In this document: piece by piece, positions 29,423-40,237 of the stretch
How positions within the stretch are numbered: the stretch's first letter is position 1
How the letters are laid out: each line of letters opens with the position of its first letter
Origin: Parcubacteria group bacterium Gr01-1014_31
GTDB taxonomy: Bacteria; Patescibacteriota; Patescibacteriia; Buchananbacterales; GWA2-38-13
Length of the DNA: 64,000 nt
Reading direction: 5' to 3'
Assembly (NCBI GenBank): GCA_007376135.1
Contig: VMFR01000001.1
Span: 142,554-206,553, forward strand
Translations under genes and position numbers: made by a program
The notes under the pieces: model-generated
What the model was told of the DNA's origin: nothing
Database searches by the model: none
What the model saw: only the letters and a program-made list of their open reading frames with translations

Positions 29423-31150
29423 TTACTCGCGGGTGCCGACCGTCCCCGGCGGCGGGAAATCCAATTCGCGATCCCAATTGACCCGCCAGATCTTGAGTAG
29501 CGGACGACCGTCCGCCGCCGCAACGATCTGTGGGAAAACGTTCTGCCGTTGCGCCAAAGCGGAAAAGAATAAGTGGGTCACGCGAGTTTGTTCGTCGAAT
29601 GCGCCCTTGCTGTCCATCGCGGCCGGACCGACCTCCACATACCAGAGGGGCCGGCCCTTTCTCGCTTCAAAGACATTTTGCCAATTCAAGTAGGCAAAAA
29701 TTCCGGCGTTCACGAATGTTGCCTGGTCGGCGTACCACCCGTAGCGAAAGAGATACCAGTTGATCGGGAACCAGCTGATGCGGTTATCCAGCACGACGAA
29801 TTCTTGTTCCGGATTGGCGGCGTCCGCGATCTGCCGCTGGAACCAACTGAGCAACGAAGGATAATGCCGCGGCGTCAACGTGGTTGGGATGCGCTGCTGC
29901 CGCCATGATTCCCAGGCGGAAAATCCGACCGGTGCCGCCCAGAACGTTTGCACCAGCTGCGGTATCGGCTTGACCGCGGAGAGCGTGGGAAAACAGGCGG
30001 CCGCGGCAATAGCGATCGCCAACCCGGCAAGCGGGAAAGAATACTTTTTTGGCAGTAGCGAGATTCCGGCCCCGAAAGCCAAAGCGTAGAATGGCAACAG
30101 TACCGCACTGCGTCCAAAATCGTTCAACGTCACCAGGGCAAGGACCGCCCCGACCACCCCGGTCCCGATGCTGAATACCACGACGGACTCATTGAGGTGT
30201 ACTCTTCGCAGCAGCGCATACAGCCAGCCCATCAGCGCGCCAACGCTTGCCACCACCGTCAACCCCCGGGCCTGATTTCCCGCGAACGTCAGAATCTGCC
30301 GCGCATCGCCCTGCCACAGCGCTTGATGGCTTGCCGGCCAATCCTTGGAAGTGTCCTGACCGAGCAGACGGGCTAATTGCAGGTCGAAATGTCCGCGGAG
30401 AAGATAGAGCTGCCAATTATAGTAGGCTAACGGCAGCAGCAGCGCGATCAGAGCTCCGGGAGCGAACCAAAAACCGCGGCGGCGAAAGCAGCGCTGGCGG
30501 ACGAACGTCCACGCCAGCGGCAGCAGAACCAACGCCGCGGAATATTTGGTCAGTAATCCGGCCGCGACCGCCGTTCCGACGGCCGCCCAGCGCAGTGTGC
30601 TGTACCGGTCATCCGCCGTTCGGACGGCGCGGTCCGCCAGGAACATGGCCAGGACGATCCAAAAAATGACGCCGGATTCTTGGATGGCCTGGCGGGAAAT
30701 GAAGATATGCCAAGGGAGTACCGACAGCAGCATCCCGGCGGCCAATGCCGCGCCGCGATAGCCCCAGCGGCGCAGTAAGAGCATCAGCAGCGCGACCGCT
30801 CCCGCGCCATAGAGCGCTGACGGCAGGCGTACGACCCACAGCTTGATACCCAGCGCCCGCACGGCCAGCCAAATGGTCGCAAAGTGCAGGGGCGGGTGGT
30901 CGTTGAAGCTCAATTGCGTCCAAGCCGGCAATCGTTCCTCATCCTGAAACCAGATCCATGGCGTCCCGAGCACCGTAGAGAACATAAAATCATTCCACCC
31001 GATCGCGCGGATGGCGTAGTTCCCTTCGTCGGTGCGGACCTCGTCGCGGTCCAAATACACCACCCGCAACGTCAGCGCCAACACCACAATGCCCGCGAAC
31101 GCGAGCAGCCACCGCCGATGAATAGCGGGACCTTGGGGTGCAGCAGGCAT
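29423..31150 (-). CDS. GT-C fold glycosyltransferase (ArnT/PMT, GT39-like)
   Basis: DE motif after TM1, DHPPLH, VRLPSAL, LLTKYS. Confidence 0.8.
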   Translation of the reverse strand: MPAAPQGPAIHRRWLLAFAGIVVLALTLRVVYLDRDEVRTDEGNYAIRAIGWNDFMFSTVLGTPWIWFQDEERLPAWTQLSFNDHPPLHFATIWLAVRALGIKLWVVRLPSALYGAGAVALLMLLLRRWGYRGAALAAGMLLSVLPWHIFISRQAIQESGVIFWIVLAMFLADRAVRTADDRYSTLRWAAVGTAVAAGLLTKYSAALVLLPLAWTFVRQRCFRRRGFWFAPGALIALLLPLAYYNWQLYLLRGHFDLQLARLLGQDTSKDWPASHQALWQGDARQILTFAGNQARGLTVVASVGALMGWLYALLRRVHLNESVVVFSIGTGVVGAVLALVTLNDFGRSAVLLPFYALAFGAGISLLPKKYSFPLAGLAIAIAAAACFPTLSAVKPIPQLVQTFWAAPVGFSAWESWRQQRIPTTLTPRHYPSLLSWFQRQIADAANPEQEFVVLDNRISWFPINWYLFRYGWYADQATFVNAGIFAYLNWQNVFEARKGRPLWYVEVGPAAMDSKGAFDEQTRVTHLFFSALAQRQNVFPQIVAAADGRPLLKIWRVNWDRELDFPPPGTVGTRE

Positions 31151-31168
31151 ACCATCATGATAGCACGC

Positions 31169-31199
31169 AAAAAACCGCCCGTATCCGCGGGCGGTTTTT
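31169..31199. terminator. Intrinsic terminator after the cyclophilin gene
   Basis: AAAAAACCGCCCG-tatccg-CGGGCGGTTTTT. Confidence 0.75.
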
Positions 31200-31214
31200 C
31201 TTCAGCGCGGACGG

Positions 31215-31820
31215 CTATTCCTGCACGGTGACGGAGCGCAGCACGACGTCTTCCGTCGGTCGGTCATTCGCGTCCGTCGCCACCTTTTCAATGGCCGCAA
31301 CCACGTCCATTCCCTCCACGACCATTCCGAAGTTCGTGTGCTTGCCGTCCAACCAATCGGTCGCCGCCTTGGTCACAATGAAGAACTGACTGCCGTTGGT
31401 ATTCGGGCCGGCGTTCGCCATCGCCAGCGACCCGCGCACTAATTTATGCTCGTTGATCTCATCCTCGAAACGGTAGTCCGGTCCGCCGGTACCCCAGCGC
31501 GATTTGGCGGCCAGATCCTTGCTCAGCGGATCGCCGCCCTGGATCATAAAATCGCTAATGACGCGGTGAAACCGCGTGCCGTCGTAAAAGCCTTCCCGGG
31601 CCAGTTTGACGAAATTGTCGACGGTCTTTGGCGCGTCCGAGCGGTAGAGCTCGACCACGATCGTCCCCTTGCTGGTAACCAATGTTGCACGCATAGTTGT
31701 GGCAATTGGCGTCGGCGTCGGAGTGGGCGTCACCGCCACCCCGCCGGCCGGCAGATTAGAATTTTTTACGCAGCCGGCGATGAGGACGGCCGCAATGAGA
31801 AGAAATGATCGTGGTCGCAT
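31215..31820 (-). CDS. Cyclophilin-type PPIase, predicted lipoprotein
   Basis: LIAGC lipobox; FHRVI.DFMIQGGDP, MANAGPNTNGSQFFI, WLDGKHT. Confidence 0.93.
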   Translation of the reverse strand: MRPRSFLLIAAVLIAGCVKNSNLPAGGVAVTPTPTPTPIATTMRATLVTSKGTIVVELYRSDAPKTVDNFVKLAREGFYDGTRFHRVISDFMIQGGDPLSKDLAAKSRWGTGGPDYRFEDEINEHKLVRGSLAMANAGPNTNGSQFFIVTKAATDWLDGKHTNFGMVVEGMDVVAAIEKVATDANDRPTEDVVLRSVTVQE

Positions 31821-32019
31821 AGTATTCTGTATTAACTATCCCCAAGCCATACACCGTTTCACCCTTGACGGGCCTCACCCTGCCCATCTCGCGTTTTTGA
31901 ACAGTGCAATATTGGGGATAAAGTAATAAACTGCCTTTTCTGACCGTCGATGCACGCGCTTTGTCCCGCTCCATCCTGGGGGGAAATCGAACCTTCATAC
32001 TGGGCTCTCCCACACATTG

Positions 32020-32090
32020 CTGGGGGGGAAGGAATCGAACCTTCATTCGCAGCTCCAAAGGCTGCTGTCCTGCCATTAGACGACCCCCCA
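32020..32090 (-). tRNA. tRNA-Gln(TTG), intact, no encoded CCA
   Basis: TGGGGGG TC GTCT AATGGC AGGAC A GCAGC CTTTGGA GCTGC GAAT GAAGG TTCGATT CCTTC CCCCCCA G. Confidence 0.95.
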
Positions 32091-32199
32091 GCAATGTGTG
32101 GGACCTTGCCCGACTCCGCGCCTGCCCCGTCGTATGACGGGGCCCTGTTTTACCCCACACCTTTCGACCTTAAATAGCAGAGCTACTTTGCTTGCCTAC

Positions 32200-32270
32200 C
32201 CGCGGGAGCAGAACTCGAATCTGGATTCACGGCTCCAAAGGCTGCTGTCCTGCCCTTAGACGATCCCGTA
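32200..32270 (-). pseudogene. Degenerate tRNA-Gln(TTG)
   Basis: Same D and anticodon loop pattern as the intact copy, but mismatches in the acceptor (A-C), anticodon (A-C) and T stems (C-C), and A53 in place of G53. Confidence 0.75.
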
Positions 32271-32359
32271 GTTATGGAAGCGATAGTACTAAAGGTCAAA
32301 AGGTGTGGAGCGAGGACGACCCCCCCCAGGACGGGACGCAACGTCCACCGGTACCGGCA

Positions 32360-32587
32360 TCAACTGAACCGCACCGCGTTATAGATCTTCCTGGCAGCAA
32401 AGTACATGACGAAGGCGAAAAAGACTCCCAGATACCCGAAGGTGCCGACCTTGAGCGGCAGCGAAATGTGTTGGCCGACGATGAAGTTGACGACTTCAAG
32501 CACTAAGAGCACGCCCATCAGGATCATCACGATGAAGATGAGCATGACCACGGTCAGAATGGTTTCCAAAAGCCGGCCGGCGTGCAT
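32360..32587 (-). CDS. Small two-TM membrane protein
   Basis: 75 aa hydrophobic ORF with a TTGACG-N17/18-TACGCT promoter-like sequence upstream (about 32602-32630). Confidence 0.65.
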   Translation of the reverse strand: MHAGRLLETILTVVMLIFIVMILMGVLLVLEVVNFIVGQHISLPLKVGTFGYLGVFFAFVMYFAARKIYNAVRFS

Positions 32588-32637
32588 AGGTACGAAGTGG
32601 TAGCGTAGCGGGCGGGGGGCGAAACGTCAATCCCGCC

Positions 32638-33552
32638 TCAAACTTTCAGGTAACGGCGCACGGCGAACACCGATCCCACCATATTTAGCGCCGACATTCC
32701 CAGCAGTTGCGAACCGAAGATGGCCACAAAGTTCTCGCGGAAATAGCCAGCCAGATCGAGCGGTACGCCGGTAAAGAAATCCTGAAGATACGGCTGCACC
32801 GCATTCAGCAACGGGAATGTGACCGCCACAGCGAGTCCGGTCGCGCACAGCGCGTACAGCACGCCCTCCAGCACGAACGGCGCGGTGATGAACGCGTTGG
32901 ACGCGCCGACCAGCTTCATAATGCCGATCTCGTCGCGGTGCGTATAGATCGCGACGCGGATGGTGTTGAACACGATCAGCGTGGCGATCAGGACGAACAG
33001 CGCCGATATCGCGATCCCCGCCTGGTTAATGCGGTCGGCGATCAGTCGGATCTCGTTGATCGTACGCTGGTGGTCCTTATAGTTCTCGTCGCTGACCAGA
33101 TCGCGGTACGGCGAATGGTTGAGCACCTGGATGATCTCCGGGTAGTCCGAGGGGTGTTGTGCGGTCACCACCAGCGTCGCTCCCAGCGGGTTGTCGCCCA
33201 GCTCCTCCAGAGTCTCCAGGATGGCAGCGTCACGGGCGTGCCGCTGGCGGAATTCTTTCATCGCATCGTCGGCGGTCACGAGCGTGATGGCGGTCACCTG
33301 TGAAAGCTTGCCCAAGTAGTCCTGCACCTCTTTGACCTTCGGCGTGTCCACCACCGGGTCAAAGTAAATGCTGACGTCGATCTTTTGCTCGAGGGAGGTA
33401 ACGGCGGAATCGGCGACGACATTGAGCGCCAGCAGCGCATTGACCGTCAACGACGCCAGCGCGATGATGCTGACGGTCACCAGCGACAGCCAGAAATTGC
33501 GCCAGAACCCTTGCCAGGCGAATTTAATGACGCGGTAGATGGTCACGAGCAT
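32638..33552 (-). CDS. ftsX: Cell division permease FtsX
   Basis: NPLGA, IVFNTIRVAIYTHRDEIGIMKLVGASNAFITAPF. Confidence 0.92.
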   Translation of the reverse strand: MLVTIYRVIKFAWQGFWRNFWLSLVTVSIIALASLTVNALLALNVVADSAVTSLEQKIDVSIYFDPVVDTPKVKEVQDYLGKLSQVTAITLVTADDAMKEFRQRHARDAAILETLEELGDNPLGATLVVTAQHPSDYPEIIQVLNHSPYRDLVSDENYKDHQRTINEIRLIADRINQAGIAISALFVLIATLIVFNTIRVAIYTHRDEIGIMKLVGASNAFITAPFVLEGVLYALCATGLAVAVTFPLLNAVQPYLQDFFTGVPLDLAGYFRENFVAIFGSQLLGMSALNMVGSVFAVRRYLKV

Positions 33553-33557
33553 ATGCT

Positions 33558-34244
33558 TCAACTCAACCGATAGCGCCCAACCGCCTCATCGGAGGTCAGT
33601 GTGCCCTGATCAAGTACCAGCACACGGCGCCGGATCTGATTAACCCTCCCCTCGTCATGGCTGACAAACAGCACGGTCGTACCGATCTGGTTGATCTTCA
33701 GCAATAACTCGATGATCTCTTGCGAGGTGGCCGTATCCAGGTTGCCGGTCGGCTCATCCGCCACCAGGATCTTGGGACCGTGGGCGAGCGCCCGTGCGAT
33801 CGCGACGCGCTGCTGCTCGCCGCCGGAAAGGTGGCGCGGGAAACGGTCGTGCTTATCGGCCAACCCGACGATCTTGAGCACCTCGGGGACGATCTTGCGG
33901 ATACGCGAGGGGCGCGCTCCGATCACCTGCATCGCGAATGCGACATTCTCAAAAACGGTCTTCTTTTGCAATAATTTGTAATCCTGGAAAACGACACCGA
34001 TCTGCCGCCGAAGGTAAGGCACTTCACGAGACCGGATGTGCGTAATGTCCCAACCGCCGACGACCACCTGCCCTTCGCTCGCCCGCTCTTCGGCGGTCAG
34101 GATCTTGACCAGCGTGGTTTTTCCGGTGCCGCTCTTGCCAACGATCGAGATGAATTCACCCGCCAAAACCTCGAAAGAAACGTTGGCCAAAGCGACCGTG
34201 CGCTCAGGGAAATAGATTTTGGATACGTTGCGGAAGATGATCAT
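33558..34244 (-). CDS. ftsE: Cell division ATP-binding protein FtsE
   Basis: [38 protein letters not shown]. Confidence 0.93.
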
Positions 34245-34267
34245 GGGTTTTGAGGAACGCGCACGGC

Positions 34268-34305
34268 TTGAAATTTCTACCCCAGCGTGCGTATACTGGT
34301 ATACT
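34268..34305 (+). promoter_or_regulatory. Probable promoter(s) of the Gly/Thr tRNA cluster
   Basis: TTGAAA-N18-TATACT and a second TGgTATACT extended -10. Confidence 0.55.
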
Positions 34306-34357
34306 GCTGTCCCAACGGCATCGGGTCAAGGGATAAGTCTATTCCCGGCCGCCACGC

Positions 34358-34548
34358 GCGGGATTAGTACCATGGTAGTACGTCGGCTTCCCTCGCCCCT
34401 CACCTTTACGATTGGCTCTCTGCGGGTGTAGTACAGTGGTAGTATGCTAGCTTCCCAAGCTAGAGATGGGAGTTCGATTCTCCTCACCCGCTCCAGGTAA
34501 AGGTGTGGGGGCAAGCAAAAGACGCGAGTTCGATTCTCGTATCCCGCT
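34358..34548 (+). pseudogene. Outer interrupted tRNA-Gly(CCC) shell (exons 34358-34392 and 34513-34548)
   Basis: GCGGGAT TA GTAC CATGGTA GTAC G TCGGC TT CCC | 120-nt insert | AA GCAAA AGAC GCGAG TTCGATT CTCGT ATCCCGC T; intact acceptor, D and T arms, mismatched anticodon stem. Confidence 0.85.
34422..34495 (+). tRNA. tRNA-Gly(CCC), intact with CCA, nested in the outer Gly shell
   Basis: GCGGGTG TA GTAC AGTGGTA GTAT G CTAGC TTCCCAA GCTAG AGAT GGGAG TTCGATT CTCCT CACCCGC T CCA. Confidence 0.95.
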
Positions 34549-34589
34549 CGCTGCCGCGGTTCGGCAGGATATTCGCGCGGTTGCCTTAG

Positions 34590-34808
34590 GCCGAAGTACT
34601 TTCACATCTTGCCTTGCCGGAGTAGCTCAGCCGGTAGAGCAGTGCTTTCGTAAAGCAAAGGTCGAGGGTTCGAGTCCCTCCTCCGGCTTGGCAAGATGTG
34701 AAAGATGCCGATCATTGTGGGTTTCCCGCCGTTCTCCTCTTTCGGTTATTGAAATATAGGGAGGAGGGACCCCGCCGACGGCGGTGGCGACTCCCACCTT
34801 CGGCTCCA
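34590..34808 (+). pseudogene. Outer decayed tRNA-Thr-like shell
   Basis: 5' GCCGAAG-TA (34590-34598) pairs perfectly with 3' CTTCGGC followed by T-CCA (34798-34808); eroded T arm GTGG-CGACT-CCCAC. Confidence 0.7.
34616..34688 (+). tRNA. tRNA-Thr(CGT), intact, no encoded CCA, nested in the outer shell
   Basis: GCCGGAG TA GCTC AGCCGGTA GAGC A GTGCT TTCGTAA AGCAA AGGTC GAGGG TTCGAGT CCCTC CTCCGGC T. Confidence 0.95.
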
Positions 34809-34884
34809 GACAACTCCGTAAATAGGAAAGATCGGCGCCCGCAGCAGCCGATTTTTCATATCCGCTGCCCTCCGGAAACTGGAA

Positions 34885-36105
34885 CTACGGCGCGTACCGG
34901 TGGATGTTCATGCTGCGCAGGATCTCCCCCAGCCGTTGTTCAAAATAGTCGACCGGGGTCACGGTGATCACGCGTAGCCGCAGCCGCAGGTCGCTCCCCT
35001 CCCCGACCGATTCCTCGCGCAACAGCAGCACATACCCTTGGGCGGTGCGCATCGGCGGCGATACCTCCCCGTCCGAAATCTTTTCCGCCGCGGCAAAGAT
35101 CTGAACATCAAGGTCGTCGCGGCCGCGATACCCCAAATCTCCGCCAATTGCACGGCTATCATCGCGATTCACCTCGCTCGCGGTCGCCGCGAAACTGCTG
35201 GCGCCCTCCGCGAGCGACTGATGGATGGATTTGAGCCGTACGGCGGCCGCTTCCCAGGCCTGCGGGTCTTCCCAGAGCTTGGCGCGGACCGCGAGCTCCA
35301 GCAGGTAGGGCCTTACCAAGCGCTCGGAAAAATCATCCAACGACCAACCATAAAAATTCTCCCGCACGCTCTGCTCAAGCCGCTCCCTCGATCCGCTCTG
35401 CGCGATCAACTGCTGCAACTGCGCGTTCACGGCGGCTGCACCGACCTGCACCTGGTACTGTTCGGCCAGGCGGTCGATCGCCGCCTGCCCGACGAAACGA
35501 GTAAATGCCTGCCGCCGCAGTTCACCGTCGCCTTGCGGTCTGCCGGTCCGCACCGATGACCGCCGCAGCATTTCCACGTCGCGCAAATAATCATCCAGCC
35601 AGTATACCCGACCGTCGGCGTCCACGGCGGGGAGCGGCAGGACCCTCGCCAGCGCCGCCACGGCCCAGTTGCTCCAGCCGAATCGGTACGCGCCGACCAG
35701 AACTACGGCGAACAACATGGTTACGAGCGCAGCAAAAATCGACACGGCCAAAAGAGGAGTCCGCCGCCGTCTCTTGGCGGTTTGTGCCGGCCGCCGCGGC
35801 GGTCGGGTCGCTCTCCTTGCTCTTCCCGGCGGCAGCGCCAAAGGAAGCCTCGGGATGATCAACTTCAGCGCACGTGGAACCGACTTTTGCGGCGGAGCGG
35901 CCGCAGCCGCTGCGGTGGTAGTCGTTTTCTTTTTTGGACGCGTCGGGCGCTTGGGTACGCTCGCCTTGACCGCCGACGGCGCGGGCTTGCCGGCAACGAT
36001 CTTGGGGCGTTGCCGGTCCCGCTCGATCCACGCCAGCACCTCACGCCGCATCGCCGACAGTTCGTTTTCGGAAAATGTTTTTCCGTTCGAGGATAGATCG
36101 GGCAT
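34885..36105 (-). CDS. SurA/PrsA-like foldase (membrane anchor, SurA-N, parvulin) with basic disordered N-terminus
   Basis: TM, LPLPAV, YGWSLDDF, SFAATA...GGDLGY...VSPPMRTAQGYVLL. Confidence 0.8.
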   Translation of the reverse strand: MPDLSSNGKTFSENELSAMRREVLAWIERDRQRPKIVAGKPAPSAVKASVPKRPTRPKKKTTTTAAAAAAPPQKSVPRALKLIIPRLPLALPPGRARRATRPPRRPAQTAKRRRRTPLLAVSIFAALVTMLFAVVLVGAYRFGWSNWAVAALARVLPLPAVDADGRVYWLDDYLRDVEMLRRSSVRTGRPQGDGELRRQAFTRFVGQAAIDRLAEQYQVQVGAAAVNAQLQQLIAQSGSRERLEQSVRENFYGWSLDDFSERLVRPYLLELAVRAKLWEDPQAWEAAAVRLKSIHQSLAEGASSFAATASEVNRDDSRAIGGDLGYRGRDDLDVQIFAAAEKISDGEVSPPMRTAQGYVLLLREESVGEGSDLRLRLRVITVTPVDYFEQRLGEILRSMNIHRYAP

Positions 36106-36111
36106 ATCACC

Positions 36112-36504
36112 TCACGGTACTTCGCGCTGGCGGCTAAAGAAATAGGACCACCAGGCGCGCCAGGGAGCCTTGTCCCGCGCATTGGCGGCCGGACTCGCCT
36201 CCGGGATGGGAGTATTGGTGGGCACGACGATCACTTTTTCGCCTGGTTTGGCGAGTCCCAACTCCAATCGGGCGCGGCTTTCGGCATACCCTTCAGAATC
36301 AAAGTATTTGATAAGTTCGCTCAACTCGACGTGCCGGGTTTGCAACGTACTGACCTCCTGACGCAAGGAAAGCAATTCGTCGTCCAGCGCCCGCGAGCGG
36401 CGATAATCCTTGACGTACGAAACCGCGACCACGCCGAGCAGCGTCAGCGAGATAAGCAGCACTGCCCAATATCCAAAACGCACGGAGAGATGTCGTGCCG
36501 GCAT
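36112..36504 (-). CDS. Septum formation initiator (FtsB/DivIC family)
   Basis: TM, coiled coil, ARLELGLAKPGEKVIVV. Confidence 0.85.
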   Translation of the reverse strand: MPARHLSVRFGYWAVLLISLTLLGVVAVSYVKDYRRSRALDDELLSLRQEVSTLQTRHVELSELIKYFDSEGYAESRARLELGLAKPGEKVIVVPTNTPIPEASPAANARDKAPWRAWWSYFFSRQREVP

Positions 36505-36536
36505 AGGAGGAATGGCTCAACCAGTATACCGTTCAA

Positions 36537-39245
36537 TCAATGGTGCGGCGAGAGCACGTTTCGCTGGAAGATCCGACGCTGCCACAGCAGATACTTCATG
36601 ATCTCGATGACGCCCAGCACCGCGAGCGCTAAAACGCCGATCATCACCCAATCGGCGGGCAGCAGCGGAACCGTGCGAAAAACTTTCTGGAAATGGGGCT
36701 CGTACACGGCCAACATCTGCAGCGCCAGTCCGAATCCCACCGAACCCAATAGCCACAAATTTCCCAGCATCGTCTGCTGGAAGATCGAATGGCGCAGGCT
36801 GCGCAAGGAAAAAACATAGATCAGCGAAACGAGCGCCAGCTGCGTGAAGATCAGCGTCCGAAGGTAATCAATGGGAAGCCCGCGCCGGTGTAACACGAAC
36901 AGCAGCGCAAACAGCGGCACGGTGATAGCGACGCTGATGACCGCGATCATCGCTTTTGCCTCATGGCTGATGACCGGCTCGCGTTTATCGCGCGGCGGCT
37001 CGTCCAACACCTCTGGTTCGCCGGGTTCCAAGGTGAGCGCCATGGCCGGCAGGCTGTCGCAAATAAGATTGATCCACAAGATTTGCGCGGGCAGCAACGG
37101 CAGCGGCAACCCGGAAAGCATCGCTGCAGTTACCAGCAGCACTTCCGCCATGCTGTCCGAAAGCAAATAAAGGACGGCCTTGCGGATATTGTCGTAGATC
37201 ACTCGCCCTTGCCGCACGACCGCGACGATGGTATTAAAATTGTTCTCCAGCAAGATGAGGTCGGCGGTTTCTTTGGCCACATCGGTCCCCGAATTCAGGG
37301 CAATGCCGATGTCGGCAGCCTTGAGCGCCGGCGCGTCGTTCACCCCATCTCCGGTCATTGCGACGACCGCGCCTCGGCGCTGCCATGCCGTCACAATGCG
37401 CAGTTTATGCTTGGGCGTGACGCGCGCGAAAATATCGATGCTGCGGATGCGCCGCGTGAGCTGCTCATCGGTCATTCCGTCCAACGCCGAACCGTCGACG
37501 GCCCGATCGGCCGTCGCGGCCATGCCCATTTCTTTGGCGATGGCAACGGCCGTCAGCCGGTGGTCGCCGGTGATCATCACCGTCCGAATGCCGGCGCGTT
37601 GCGTGAGGGAAAACGCGTTCTTGGTCTCCTCGCGGAGCGGGTCCTTCAGGCCGATAAACCCGGTAAATATCAGCCCCGACGGCGGATCACTAAAGTCATC
37701 ATCGGCGCTCAGGCGCCGATACGCCAACCCCAACAATCGCAACCCGTGCCGACTGTGCTCTTCGTACGCTGCCGTCAGTCTCCGGCGCAGCGCCGCGTCC
37801 ATCGGTTTGACCTTGCCGGCCACTTCGGCGAACGACGAGAATTGCAGCACCCGCTCCGGGGATCCCTTGCAGTACATCATGCGCGCATTCTCCACCTGGT
37901 GCAGTGTGGCCATGTATTTAGTTTCCGAACGGAACGGGATCTCATCCAGACGCGGCTCGGCACGGTTCAGCTCGTCTGGGCGCGCACCGACCTGAGCGGC
38001 CGCCAAGAGCAGCGCCGTCTCGGTCGGATTCCCCAGCACCCGCCAATGGCGGAGCTCTTCGTCGGGATTTTCGACCACCGCGTCGTTGCACAACGCGGCT
38101 ATCTTCAGCACCAGTAAGCGTTCCGCCATGCGCGGGTCCTCGACGATCCGGTGAAAATCGTAGTGGTCGTCGGCGGTGATGACGCGTGATACGCGCATCA
38201 CGCCCTCGGTGATTGTCCCGGTCTTGTCCGTACAGATGATGGAGGTGCTCCCGAGGGTTTCCGTGGCCGCCAGACGGTGCACCAGCGCCCCCTGTTTCAA
38301 GATGGCGCGCATGCCGATCGCCAAAATGACGGTCACGATGACCAACAGCCCTTCAGGGATGGCCGAGACTGCCAACGCGACGGCCATATACAGCATGCTG
38401 TCCTCCGGATGGCCATCCGGAGAGAGGAACGGACGGCCCTGCAGCATGCCGATCAACGCCACGATCGCGGCAATGACGCAGACGACGACCGTGAGTTGCT
38501 TGCCGAGTTGCTCCAATTTCAACTGCAACGGGGTCGGCGGCTCACCGGTTTCTCGGACCAACATTGCGATCTGCCCCAATTCGGTTTCGGCGCCGGTGGC
38601 GCAGACGACCGCCGTACCCTCGCCCGAAGCGATCGTCGTGCCGAGGTACAGCATATTCTCGCGGTCGGGCAGCGACGCGCCGGGCGCTAACGTGGTGACC
38701 GTCTTGGGTGACGCCGCGGATTCCCCGGTCAACGGGGCTTCCACCACCGTCAGATCGATGGACTGCAAAAGGCGCGCATCAGCCGGAACGCGATCCCCGG
38801 CGCGCACCACAACGACGTCGCCGGGCACCAGTACATCCGTCGGTACCGCGATCTCGCGTCCGCTGCGCAACACGCGAGCCTTGAAGGTCACTAGCCGTCG
38901 TAATTGCTCGAACTCCTTGGTTGCCTTCCATTCCTGCAGGAAGCCGACGACGGTGTTGATCGCGATGACCGCGCCGATGACGAAAAAATCAAGCCAGTGC
39001 CGCAACACCAAGGTCAGCGCCAGCGCAAAAAGCAAAATGCCGATGACGGGGCTGCGCAGTTGACCGAGAAGAATGACCAGGCCGCCCAAACGCTTCTCCC
39101 GCGGCAGAACGTTGGGACCATGGCGGTGCAACCGGCGGCGTGCCTCCTCGGCGCCCAGTCCGCGGGCGGTGGTATGCAATTTCCGCAGGATCGCCGATTC
39201 CGCGGCGTGATGCCACATCGAAGAATTGGCGGCGGCTGTCGACAT
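36537..39245 (-). CDS. P-type IIA cation (Ca2+)-transporting ATPase
   Basis: LTGES, IPEGL, DKTGT, KGSPE, MTGDGVNDAPAL, QILWINL. Confidence 0.93.
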   Translation of the reverse strand: MSTAAANSSMWHHAAESAILRKLHTTARGLGAEEARRRLHRHGPNVLPREKRLGGLVILLGQLRSPVIGILLFALALTLVLRHWLDFFVIGAVIAINTVVGFLQEWKATKEFEQLRRLVTFKARVLRSGREIAVPTDVLVPGDVVVVRAGDRVPADARLLQSIDLTVVEAPLTGESAASPKTVTTLAPGASLPDRENMLYLGTTIASGEGTAVVCATGAETELGQIAMLVRETGEPPTPLQLKLEQLGKQLTVVVCVIAAIVALIGMLQGRPFLSPDGHPEDSMLYMAVALAVSAIPEGLLVIVTVILAIGMRAILKQGALVHRLAATETLGSTSIICTDKTGTITEGVMRVSRVITADDHYDFHRIVEDPRMAERLLVLKIAALCNDAVVENPDEELRHWRVLGNPTETALLLAAAQVGARPDELNRAEPRLDEIPFRSETKYMATLHQVENARMMYCKGSPERVLQFSSFAEVAGKVKPMDAALRRRLTAAYEEHSRHGLRLLGLAYRRLSADDDFSDPPSGLIFTGFIGLKDPLREETKNAFSLTQRAGIRTVMITGDHRLTAVAIAKEMGMAATADRAVDGSALDGMTDEQLTRRIRSIDIFARVTPKHKLRIVTAWQRRGAVVAMTGDGVNDAPALKAADIGIALNSGTDVAKETADLILLENNFNTIVAVVRQGRVIYDNIRKAVLYLLSDSMAEVLLVTAAMLSGLPLPLLPAQILWINLICDSLPAMALTLEPGEPEVLDEPPRDKREPVISHEAKAMIAVISVAITVPLFALLFVLHRRGLPIDYLRTLIFTQLALVSLIYVFSLRSLRHSIFQQTMLGNLWLLGSVGFGLALQMLAVYEPHFQKVFRTVPLLPADWVMIGVLALAVLGVIEIMKYLLWQRRIFQRNVLSPHH

Positions 39246-39346
39246 ACGGACAGTATACCACACCACAAATTTCAGCCTTGGGACAACTGCGTCGATTGCA
39301 AATTAGGCGAAAATATGCTATGCTCAACGCAATTACGTACCACCGA

Positions 39347-39422
39347 GGGTCCATAGCTCAGTTGGTAGAGCAGCTCCCTTTTAAGGAGACGGTCGCAGGT
39401 TCGATCCCTGCTGGACCCACCA
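39347..39422 (+). tRNA. tRNA-Lys(TTT) with CCA (ordinary, not nested)
   Basis: GGGTCCA TA GCTC AGTTGGTA GAGC A GCTCC CTTTTAA GGAGA CGGTC GCAGG TTCGATC CCTGC TGGACCC A CCA. Confidence 0.95.
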
Positions 39423-39430
39423 CCAATTCT

Positions 39431-40237
39431 ATGTTCACGGCCATTTGGGACACCATCGTTTTCAAACCGCTGTTCAACTTCCTCATCTTCCTGTACCAGC
39501 GGTACACCGGCTACAACCTGGGAATTGCGGTGGTCTACATGACGCTGCTGTTGCGGATCGTTTTGCTGCCATTATCGGTCATGGCCGAACAGGGCAAAGA
39601 ATTCTACCGCCGCATTCACACCAAGATCTCGGAGGCTCAGCGCGATTTCGCCGATGACCCGGTCCGCCAGAAGCAGGCCATCCGCGAGCTCCTGAAGCGG
39701 CATAAGATCCGCCCTTGGACACGGGTGGTGGTGCTGTTGTTCCACATCCTTATTTTGATCGCCTTGTACCAGGTGTTCGTTGGTGGTCTGACCCGCCAAA
39801 AATTCGGTGCCCTCTACCCTTCGGTCGCTGCCCCGGACTTCATCAACACGAACCTGTTCTGCTTCGACTCGGTGCACAAGGTCGGCTGCCTGGATATCGC
39901 ACAGTCGAATTTGTGGTTCGCCGCGGTCGTGGCGATCGTCCTCTTCATCGAGATCACACTCTCCCAGCGCGGCTTGCGCAGCAAACTTTCCCAACCGGAG
40001 ATCGTCTACCGCTTCCTTTTTCCGGCGTTCACCTTCGTCGCGCTGGCGTTATTGCCCTCGGTGAAGTCGGTCTTCATTTTGACCTCGCTGCTGTTTTCTA
40101 TTATTATTAGTCTCGGGGGCACGGTATTTTTTTCCGCCGGACGCCGGCGCGAAGCGCAGGCGGAGATTAAAAAAACCGCGCCGCAAACCGCCGATGACCC
40201 GCTAGCGAACAACTACTATGGCCGACAGCCTCGATAA
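39431..40237 (+). CDS. yidC: YidC/Oxa1 family membrane insertase
   Basis: PLFNFLIFLY...LGIAVVYMTLLLRIVLLPL, coiled hairpin, LIALYQVF. Confidence 0.8.
   Translation: MFTAIWDTIVFKPLFNFLIFLYQRYTGYNLGIAVVYMTLLLRIVLLPLSVMAEQGKEFYRRIHTKISEAQRDFADDPVRQKQAIRELLKRHKIRPWTRVVVLLFHILILIALYQVFVGGLTRQKFGALYPSVAAPDFINTNLFCFDSVHKVGCLDIAQSNLWFAAVVAIVLFIEITLSQRGLRSKLSQPEIVYRFLFPAFTFVALALLPSVKSVFILTSLLFSIIISLGGTVFFSAGRRREAQAEIKKTAPQTADDPLANNYYGRQPR

Follow-up and report, generated by a model that had tools for sequence, protein, structure and literature searches.

Positions 34590–34808 of the window, the whole 64,000-nt stretch of DNA analysed here, raise the question of why an intact tRNA-Thr(CGT) gene, tightly framed by inverted arms, should lie between the two ends of a second, broken tRNA gene, and whether these outer ends (the shell) are a working RNA or the debris of an insertion. 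The genome carrying the window (G000; 1.34 Mb in 8 contigs) was compared with G001, from the same genus, with G022, from another family, and with G002, G003, G004, G005 and G013; the kin genomes range from 0.4 to 2.1 Mb. The coordinates of the features are collected in Table 1.

Table 1. Features of the tRNA-Thr nest and its surroundings (positions in the window).
Feature	Position	Strand	Observation
Sigma-70-like promoter, 10 of 12	34268–34297	+	Consensus match only
Neighbouring nest: tRNA-Gly(CCC) at 34422–34495, arms at 34396–34409 and 34497–34510, Gly(CCC) shell split at the anticodon	34358–34549	+	Relatives compared
Shell 5′ piece, nt 1–9 of ancestral resident tRNA-Thr(CGT)	34590–34598	+	Same as nt 1–9 of the intact G001 gene (L006:1758–1832); upstream flank similar
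Cassette left arm, 15 nt	34599–34613	+	13 bp perfect in G002
Intact inner tRNA-Thr(CGT), without encoded CCA	34616–34688	+	ARAGORN; Rfam RF00005, 68.3 bits
Cassette right arm, 15 nt	34690–34704	+	Perfect complement of the left arm over 15 bp
10-nt piece between right arm and resumed shell	34705–34714	+	Common to G002, 1 difference
Continuation of the shell: last part of variable loop, T-stem 5′ strand (34717–34721), TT of T loop	34715–34723	+	Matches the G001 gene; altered in G002
Family B element, a double hairpin of 64 nt, at TT|CGA in the shell T loop	34724–34787	-	Minus strand is the hairpin upstream of Tyr/Ser-linked GIY-YIG genes
Shell 3′ piece: remainder of T loop, T-stem 3′ strand, acceptor 3′ strand (34798–34804), discriminator T, CCA	34788–34808	+	21/21 positions agree with the intact gene of G001 and with the shells in G002 and G003

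The inner gene folds into a complete cloverleaf with a CGT anticodon and is the only tRNA-Thr(CGT) called in G000. The preliminary description of this DNA had recognised it as a functional-looking gene lacking an encoded CCA and enclosed by a perfect 15-bp stem, and had placed nucleotides 1–9 of an outer tRNA to its left and the matching 3′ end, from 34798, to its right. All of this is borne out: the shell strand 34590–34596 pairs 7/7 with 34798–34804, followed by T and CCA, and the shell 3′ piece is single copy in G000. The middle of the shell was read differently. The T arm, described as missing GTT, is instead split at TT|CGA by the 64-nt hairpin, with its ancestral 3′ part at 34788–34797, and the ca. 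75 nt said to replace the D and anticodon arms are mostly inside the T loop. What the shell lacks is a stretch of 36 nt that began, in the ancestral gene, at nt 10 and extended to the variable loop, so the original insertion point could be anywhere in that interval; the proposed site at the start of the D arm is thus not established for this locus, although the accompanying idea that the site varies between loci does hold (see below). Folding with ViennaRNA favours, as had been suggested, a GTGG/CCAC mini-stem (P 0.82), but this uses the end of the 64-nt insert; the ancestral T stem (P 0.17) costs 1.8 kcal/mol and is nevertheless the preferred parse, since the ancestry is clear from the relatives.

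The region folds more stably than its shuffled versions (z = -5.35), and a stem score of at least 15 was reached by 0/3000 random genomic controls and by 0.4% of mismatched tRNA flank pairs. The nest is not an assembly artefact, because the same insertion is present in the separately assembled G002. The cassette contains no ORF, and hence no GIY-YIG gene; it has the terminal inverted repeats of a MITE but not the target-site duplication. Among the loci compared, the 15-bp Thr arms are present only in G000 and G002, and 0 matches to both arms at tRNA spacing were found in metagenome_contigs. Judging from the consensus match, the upstream promoter would likely drive the Gly and Thr nests as a single transcript, in which case the Thr shell would be part of the precursor; a scan for terminators found none. 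A role of the arms in insulating the inner tRNA from its shell was considered and rejected: the pairing probability of the inner acceptor fell from 0.995 to 0.59 with the arms shuffled and to 0.50 with arms and shell shuffled, an effect that is not specific to the shell.

The relatives indicate where the shell comes from. At the orthologous site G001 has an intact tRNA-Thr(CGT) gene identical to the shell at its first 9 bases and at its last 21 and, since this genome keeps the shell allele whole and in place, the shell is very probably the relic of a resident tRNA-Thr(CGT) gene, in agreement with the Thr origin first assigned to it. The inner allele is identical to the G001 gene at 63/73 positions and to that of G022, from another family, at 67/73, and is set apart from the shell by compensated changes at two pairs, in the acceptor and T stems; on this comparison it was likely imported. 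G002 carries the same insertion, with further hairpins nested in the T-loop element and an altered T-stem 5′ strand. In G003 the outer allele is that of G000, and two different Thr(CGT) cassettes have entered it one after the other, splitting it after nt 21, which makes a nest three deep: the outer shell, a second, dead Thr(CGT) and a third, live one. The outer pairing GCCGAAG/CTTCGGC-TCCA, whose conservation in relatives had been singled out as worth checking, is unchanged in the G002 and G003 shells. Another multi-layer Thr nest is found in G005, and G004 has the 5′ piece only. The nests of G000/G002, G003 and G005 indicate that the Thr gene was overwritten independently several times.

Two further observations concern these loci. 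In G002 (locus L002; window 34705–34723), the 10-nt piece together with the changed T-stem strand makes up a short palindrome similar to the T arm found in another allele of Thr. The Gly(CCC) nests of G001 and G003 are at other sites than that of G000, and the allele that forms the shell in G000 is the inner one in G003, and vice versa.

A survey for two-sided shells, that is, cognate 5′ and 3′ fragments flanking a tRNA gene, was made with neighbouring tRNAs masked and a score of at least 13. For G000, 47 of 50 tRNA calls were kept, three ARAGORN calls without a T-loop motif being dropped before counting; a relaxed intron search with the same program returned only noise. Two-sided shells surround 12/47 tRNAs in G000, 7/48 in G001, 12/42 in G002, 6/27 in G003, 5/29 in G004, 2/31 in G005, 2/33 in G022 and 0/37 in G013, where the tRNA sets of the relatives are not all complete; the Thr shell itself was under the 5′ threshold of this survey. 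A control with the fragments in reversed order gave 0 in all eight genomes. In 40 of the 46 two-sided shells (10/12 in G000) both sides matched the cognate anticodon best, and flanking stems with a score of at least 9 accompany 23/47 tRNAs of G000, against 3.4% of mismatched flank pairs. These stems are unrelated sequences at many loci, so that selection or repair fits them as well as a transposon end does. A CCA is encoded by 17/84 stem-flanked tRNAs against 113/210 of the others, in related genomes that are not independent.

Across loci the insertions fall in the D, anticodon and T loops, with 0–4 bases lost and no duplication; Gly(GCC), for instance, is split by an A-type cassette in G002 and intact in G000, with the same 3′ flank. 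The Ile(GAT) nest, where the insertion lies at anticodon position 35/36 without loss, is what would be expected if the inserts were introns and the shell were spliced into a second tRNA. We find this hardly credible, as 36 nt including the D and anticodon arms are missing from the Thr shell, other shells lose 2–4 loop bases including TTCG, and no intron family was matched within 31000–40000 of the window.

Several tRNA loci showed other peculiarities. The Met(CAT) shells G000:C2:69432 and G001 L040:1501 share the same A arms and site, yet each shell matches the inner allele of its own genome, which may reflect gene conversion or repeated capture. At G000:C6:139169 a sequence like a T arm comes after a hairpin where ARAGORN called nothing, possibly an orphan tRNA remnant, and at G022:C1:192129–192523 three tRNA genes with near-equal scores are spaced by ca. 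161 bp, possibly by tandem amplification. In three genomes of the genus a tyrosine recombinase gene is situated a few hundred bases from a tRNA pair, Arg(TCT)/His in G000 (G000:C6:74108–74587, G002:C14:8999 and G001:C50:5377).

The preliminary description saw the shell as a chargeable or decoy tRNA-like RNA, or as a processing scaffold. Retention of the shell for such a function, with its tRNA-like end guiding RNase P and 3′ trimming or acting as a decoy, agrees with what is seen locally: the 9 + 21 bases at its ends are the same in G000, G002 and G003, in the latter after two nestings, and between G000 and G002 its acceptor shows 0/14 and its CCA 0/3 changes, compared with 17/74 in the flanks. 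Additionally, six of its seven acceptor pairs are predicted with P 0.85–1.0, a promoter-like site lies upstream and, in a gap-permissive alignment, 31/48 shells keep 7/7 acceptor pairs. The Thr shell, however, has a paired acceptor and an NCCA end but neither an intact T arm, its T loop being split by 64 nt, nor an anticodon or a mimic of it, the D and anticodon arms being absent; the anticodon arm is a main determinant for ThrRS. The T-stem 5′ strand is altered in G002, and G001 manages with no shell at this gene.

The wider set of nests also argues against such a function. Divergence between G000 and G002 was examined at 14 of 22 loci, not all of which need go back to a common insertion; there the acceptor sites (14/175 different, 8.0%) are not better conserved than the inserts (151/1429, 10.6%; p = 0.36) or the D/anticodon parts (46/387; p = 0.19). 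By a contiguous test, CCA was found in 15 of 40 scorable shells (8/48 were not scorable), 10 of the 40 with an inner gene lacking CCA, which leaves 25/40 shells without it, and G000 has a gene for a CCA-adding-type enzyme. The Thr(GGT) shell ends in TCA in G000 and in CCA in G002, and the Ile shell of G002 has lost its 3′ strand. A functional shell RNA is thus not supported as a general rule, and we regard it as rather improbable for this locus. Shells and inserts taken together diverge by 10%, against 17% in the flanks (p = 3e-5) and 24% at fourfold sites. This agrees with nests having passed recently from one lineage to another, or with weak selection on structure, and the reading of the nests as inserted cassettes needs one or the other, so that the low divergence counts against it.

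Recurrent hairpin families were identified in the shells: the A arms, family B in T loops and hairpins in D loops. In G000, 14/14 A-arm motifs are less than 500 bp from a tRNA, a zone that makes up 3.8% of the genome. The exact A-arm 16-mer occurs in 3/401 genomes of the phylum, G000 included, and as written is thus lineage-restricted. A elements delete 2–4 nt at insertion. Family B has 7 copies at the identical T-loop site in G000 shells, that of Thr among them, inserted at TT|CGA without loss or duplication, and its insertion sites share the consensus YG|WAA. Read on the minus strand, the copy in the Thr shell is identical at 27/30 positions to the hairpin preceding the Tyr-linked GIY-YIG gene of G000.

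Two sets of hairpins were noted apart from these counts. On the minus strand of the window, at 31978–32330, a tRNA-Gln(TTG) nest has its live gene in a perfect stem and, upstream between A-type arms, a complete but decayed copy of Gln (28.8 bits), everything within a Gln shell. Double hairpins resembling family B are also found away from called tRNAs, at G000:C3:207773, C5:15565, C2:73052 and C2:46212, two of them with the same flanks.

The genomes yielded 34 GIY-YIG matches, five in long frames (likely UvrC) and 29 small, and 16 of the 26 small ORFs examined are less than 500 bp from a tRNA. A GIY-YIG gene lies between the shell 5′ piece and the inner tRNA at Ile(TAT) and Tyr in G000, Leu(TAA) in G001, Ser(CGA) in G002 and Ser(GGA) in G005, and at Ile(TAT) and Leu(TAA) the same hairpin is repeated on both sides of it. 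In G000 the Tyr-linked gene is at C3:458146 and the Ile-linked one at C5:9053. One GIY-YIG ORF is situated between A arms inside the D loop of a Val shell, and three between A-like repeats without a tRNA. The tRNA-linked products are single-domain proteins of 80–96 aa that keep the conserved Y-Y-G-R-H-E positions; their nearest solved relatives are UPF0213 proteins and Slx1, and no specific family for them was found in NCBIfam. In a tree of 24 genes, the 17 linked to tRNAs form their own clade (100/99).

The Tyr/Ser subclade extends this association. Among the best 80 of 156 relatives (45 labelled as CPR groups and 35 as non-CPR), 78 have a tRNA within 500 bp, and at 58 it is on the same strand and just downstream. 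At 43 of these 58 a cognate 5′ fragment precedes the ORF, compared with 2/58 and 1/58 in controls, and 8 have shells on both sides. Most GIY-YIG/tRNA loci therefore look like duplications of a 5′ half, and the two layouts may arise differently. The family B motif is upstream of 30 of the same best 80 of 156; alignment scores of at least 15 were obtained at 17/80 loci, versus 1 on the other strand and 0 after shuffling. No relative of the A4 GIY-YIG subclade was found in viral_contigs. G013, with four GIY-YIG matches yet no shell, counts against the cassette reading.

Some of the GIY-YIG loci deserve separate mention. The ORF of the Val shell, L284 (G002:C18:620–832), has an internal TAG and is likely a decayed autonomous A element. 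Tandem repeats of tRNA 5′ piece, hairpin and GIY-YIG gene occur at L286/L291 (G005:C60), L334 and L383, and hint at a circular intermediate or at assembly collapse. L272, L273, L276 and L279 are 95-aa GIY-YIG genes, three of them flanked by the published SRM pattern, and are likely Ssn members. Small ORFs at G000:C2:38188 and C6:114505 show a DUF559-like motif, by regular-expression match only, and could be other hairpin-linked nucleases.

We consider it likely that the Thr nest, with the remnant of the resident gene as its shell and a different, intact allele inside, is the footprint of a non-autonomous cassette that hit its cognate gene and supplied a spare, probably mobilised in trans by a single-domain GIY-YIG protein acting on single-stranded DNA hairpins. 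That the tRNA-linked GIY-YIG clade moves such units is, on balance, probable. The Thr cassette is tied to the enzyme indirectly, through the secondary family B hairpin and by analogy, as it is without an ORF and no further copies of its arms were found. In the mechanism that we propose, a hairpin-ended unit with a whole tRNA gene would enter as single-stranded DNA, during transformation or replication; the sequence of its cargo would aim it at the gene with the same anticodon, or only cognate hits would survive in a single-copy gene. The nuclease would nick a cloverleaf loop and host repair would join the unit in; we know of no GIY-YIG protein of this type that has been shown to join DNA. The arms could then keep the inner cloverleaf closed in the precursor, with a host enzyme adding the CCA, while the dead shell would become a harmless landing site for more hairpins (here, family B) and deletions (here, 36 nt).

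The same components could be assembled in two steps, if a GIY-YIG-driven empty hairpin killed the tRNA gene and a spare tRNA, duplicated or transformed, recombined into the loop, arms and tRNA never moving together. Such a rescue by the host would explain the empty A and B elements that sit in shell loops (G001 Ile, G000 Val), the Pro(CGG) A insertion that is common to G000/G002 and G001 while the stem beside the inner tRNA differs, the Met shells that track the inner allele of their own genome, and the 20/48 nests in which the inner allele is the best match to its shell. However, it requires a viable stage without a single-copy tRNA, the Thr inner allele is two compensated pairs off its shell and closer to the gene of another family, and GIY-YIG genes and tRNAs co-occur inside shells; we therefore deem it unlikely.

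Since tRNA genes are common integration sites, the nest might also be the scar of an integrase-borne element, such as a prophage or island, that brought a tRNA-Thr of its own into tRNA-Thr and of which almost everything was later deleted. According to PMC3293823, integrative elements (phages, ICEs) that target tRNA genes leave a functional copy behind, together with fragments, and an archaeal example combines a tRNA-Thr fragment with a recombinase. The cassettes differ from these elements in having no integrase or att duplication and a size of ca. 110 bp, and they restore function by a complete second gene between inverted arms, with both shell halves in order. At the Thr locus there is no att-core duplication at either junction and no integrase in the cassette, and the inverted arms hug the tRNA; moreover, each genome has two tyrosine recombinases, against 12 two-sided shells, and the GIY-YIG subclade tested lacks relatives in viral_contigs. 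Such a scar is accordingly very improbable, and we retain the cassette insertion as the favoured explanation.

Known systems share parts of this picture. REP/REPIN sequences with their RAYT proteins and IS200/IS605 elements include short, hairpin-ended, non-autonomous units without target duplication and in nested clusters. Family B resembles them in its hairpin ends and in the lack of target duplication at TT|CGA; by contrast, no Y1 HUH transposase was found over the cut-off in five genomes, and here the targets are tRNA loops and the cargo is a whole cognate tRNA. In PMC11893778 (Chenal et al. 2025), where REPIN/RAYT and IS200/IS605 are also treated, SsnA is a 94-aa single-domain GIY-YIG protein that cuts single-stranded DNA beside its cognate hairpin, and the NTS-ssnA-NTS layout is likened to an insertion sequence; cutting is what is shown there, not mobility of Ssn. 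The Ssn/SRM system (SsnA, cd10448), so described, and the tRNA-linked proteins have in common a single-domain GIY-YIG of ca. 90 aa with its own palindromic repeat; no gene for such a protein lies in the Thr cassette. SRM-flanked Ssn-like genes occur in G001, G002 and G005, and SRM was found at 3/24 genes, none tRNA-linked. The tRNA-linked proteins, however, form their clade apart from these and have other hairpins, and Ssn as described carries no tRNA cargo and no nesting; the word tRNA is absent from the main text of that paper. SegB of phage T4, according to PMC2330249, is a free-standing GIY-YIG homing endonuclease among tRNA genes that recognises a conserved T-loop motif and spreads itself and neighbouring tRNA genes. 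It differs, on that account, in cutting both strands, in homing between phages and in leaving no split tRNA genes or hairpin arms, whereas the proteins here are chromosomal and go with non-autonomous hairpins.

The cassette family would work like hairpin elements of the Ssn/REPIN type and falls outside each of the named families. No account of cognate tRNA nests was found in the literature searched, which missed most subscription papers, and the Thr nest would be a non-autonomous representative of a family of self-replacing tRNA cassettes that is apparently unpublished. More tentatively, and with some doubt, these may be a distinct class of mobile DNA, in which a GIY-YIG protein of 80–90 residues and host repair would insert hairpin-ended units into tRNA genes, the cargo tRNA serving as both homology guide and replacement, and repeated rounds would overwrite essential tRNA genes with imported alleles to give Russian-doll nests. 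If true, insertion would here be guided by the cargo, with no transposase, integrase or reverse transcriptase involved, and carried out by enzymes among the smallest targeting enzymes known. If the cassette reading is right, the large, unstudied UPF0213-like GIY-YIG branch beside the Ssn family would have a testable job, and the defined hairpin substrates and insertion sites (YG|WAA, family B) might provide a minimal tool for single-strand insertion. Nested debris at tRNA loci could likewise mislead annotation into false split or intron calls. Selfish cassettes would, finally, repeatedly replace essential single-copy tRNA genes of small-genome bacteria, and tRNA alleles would move sideways among them.
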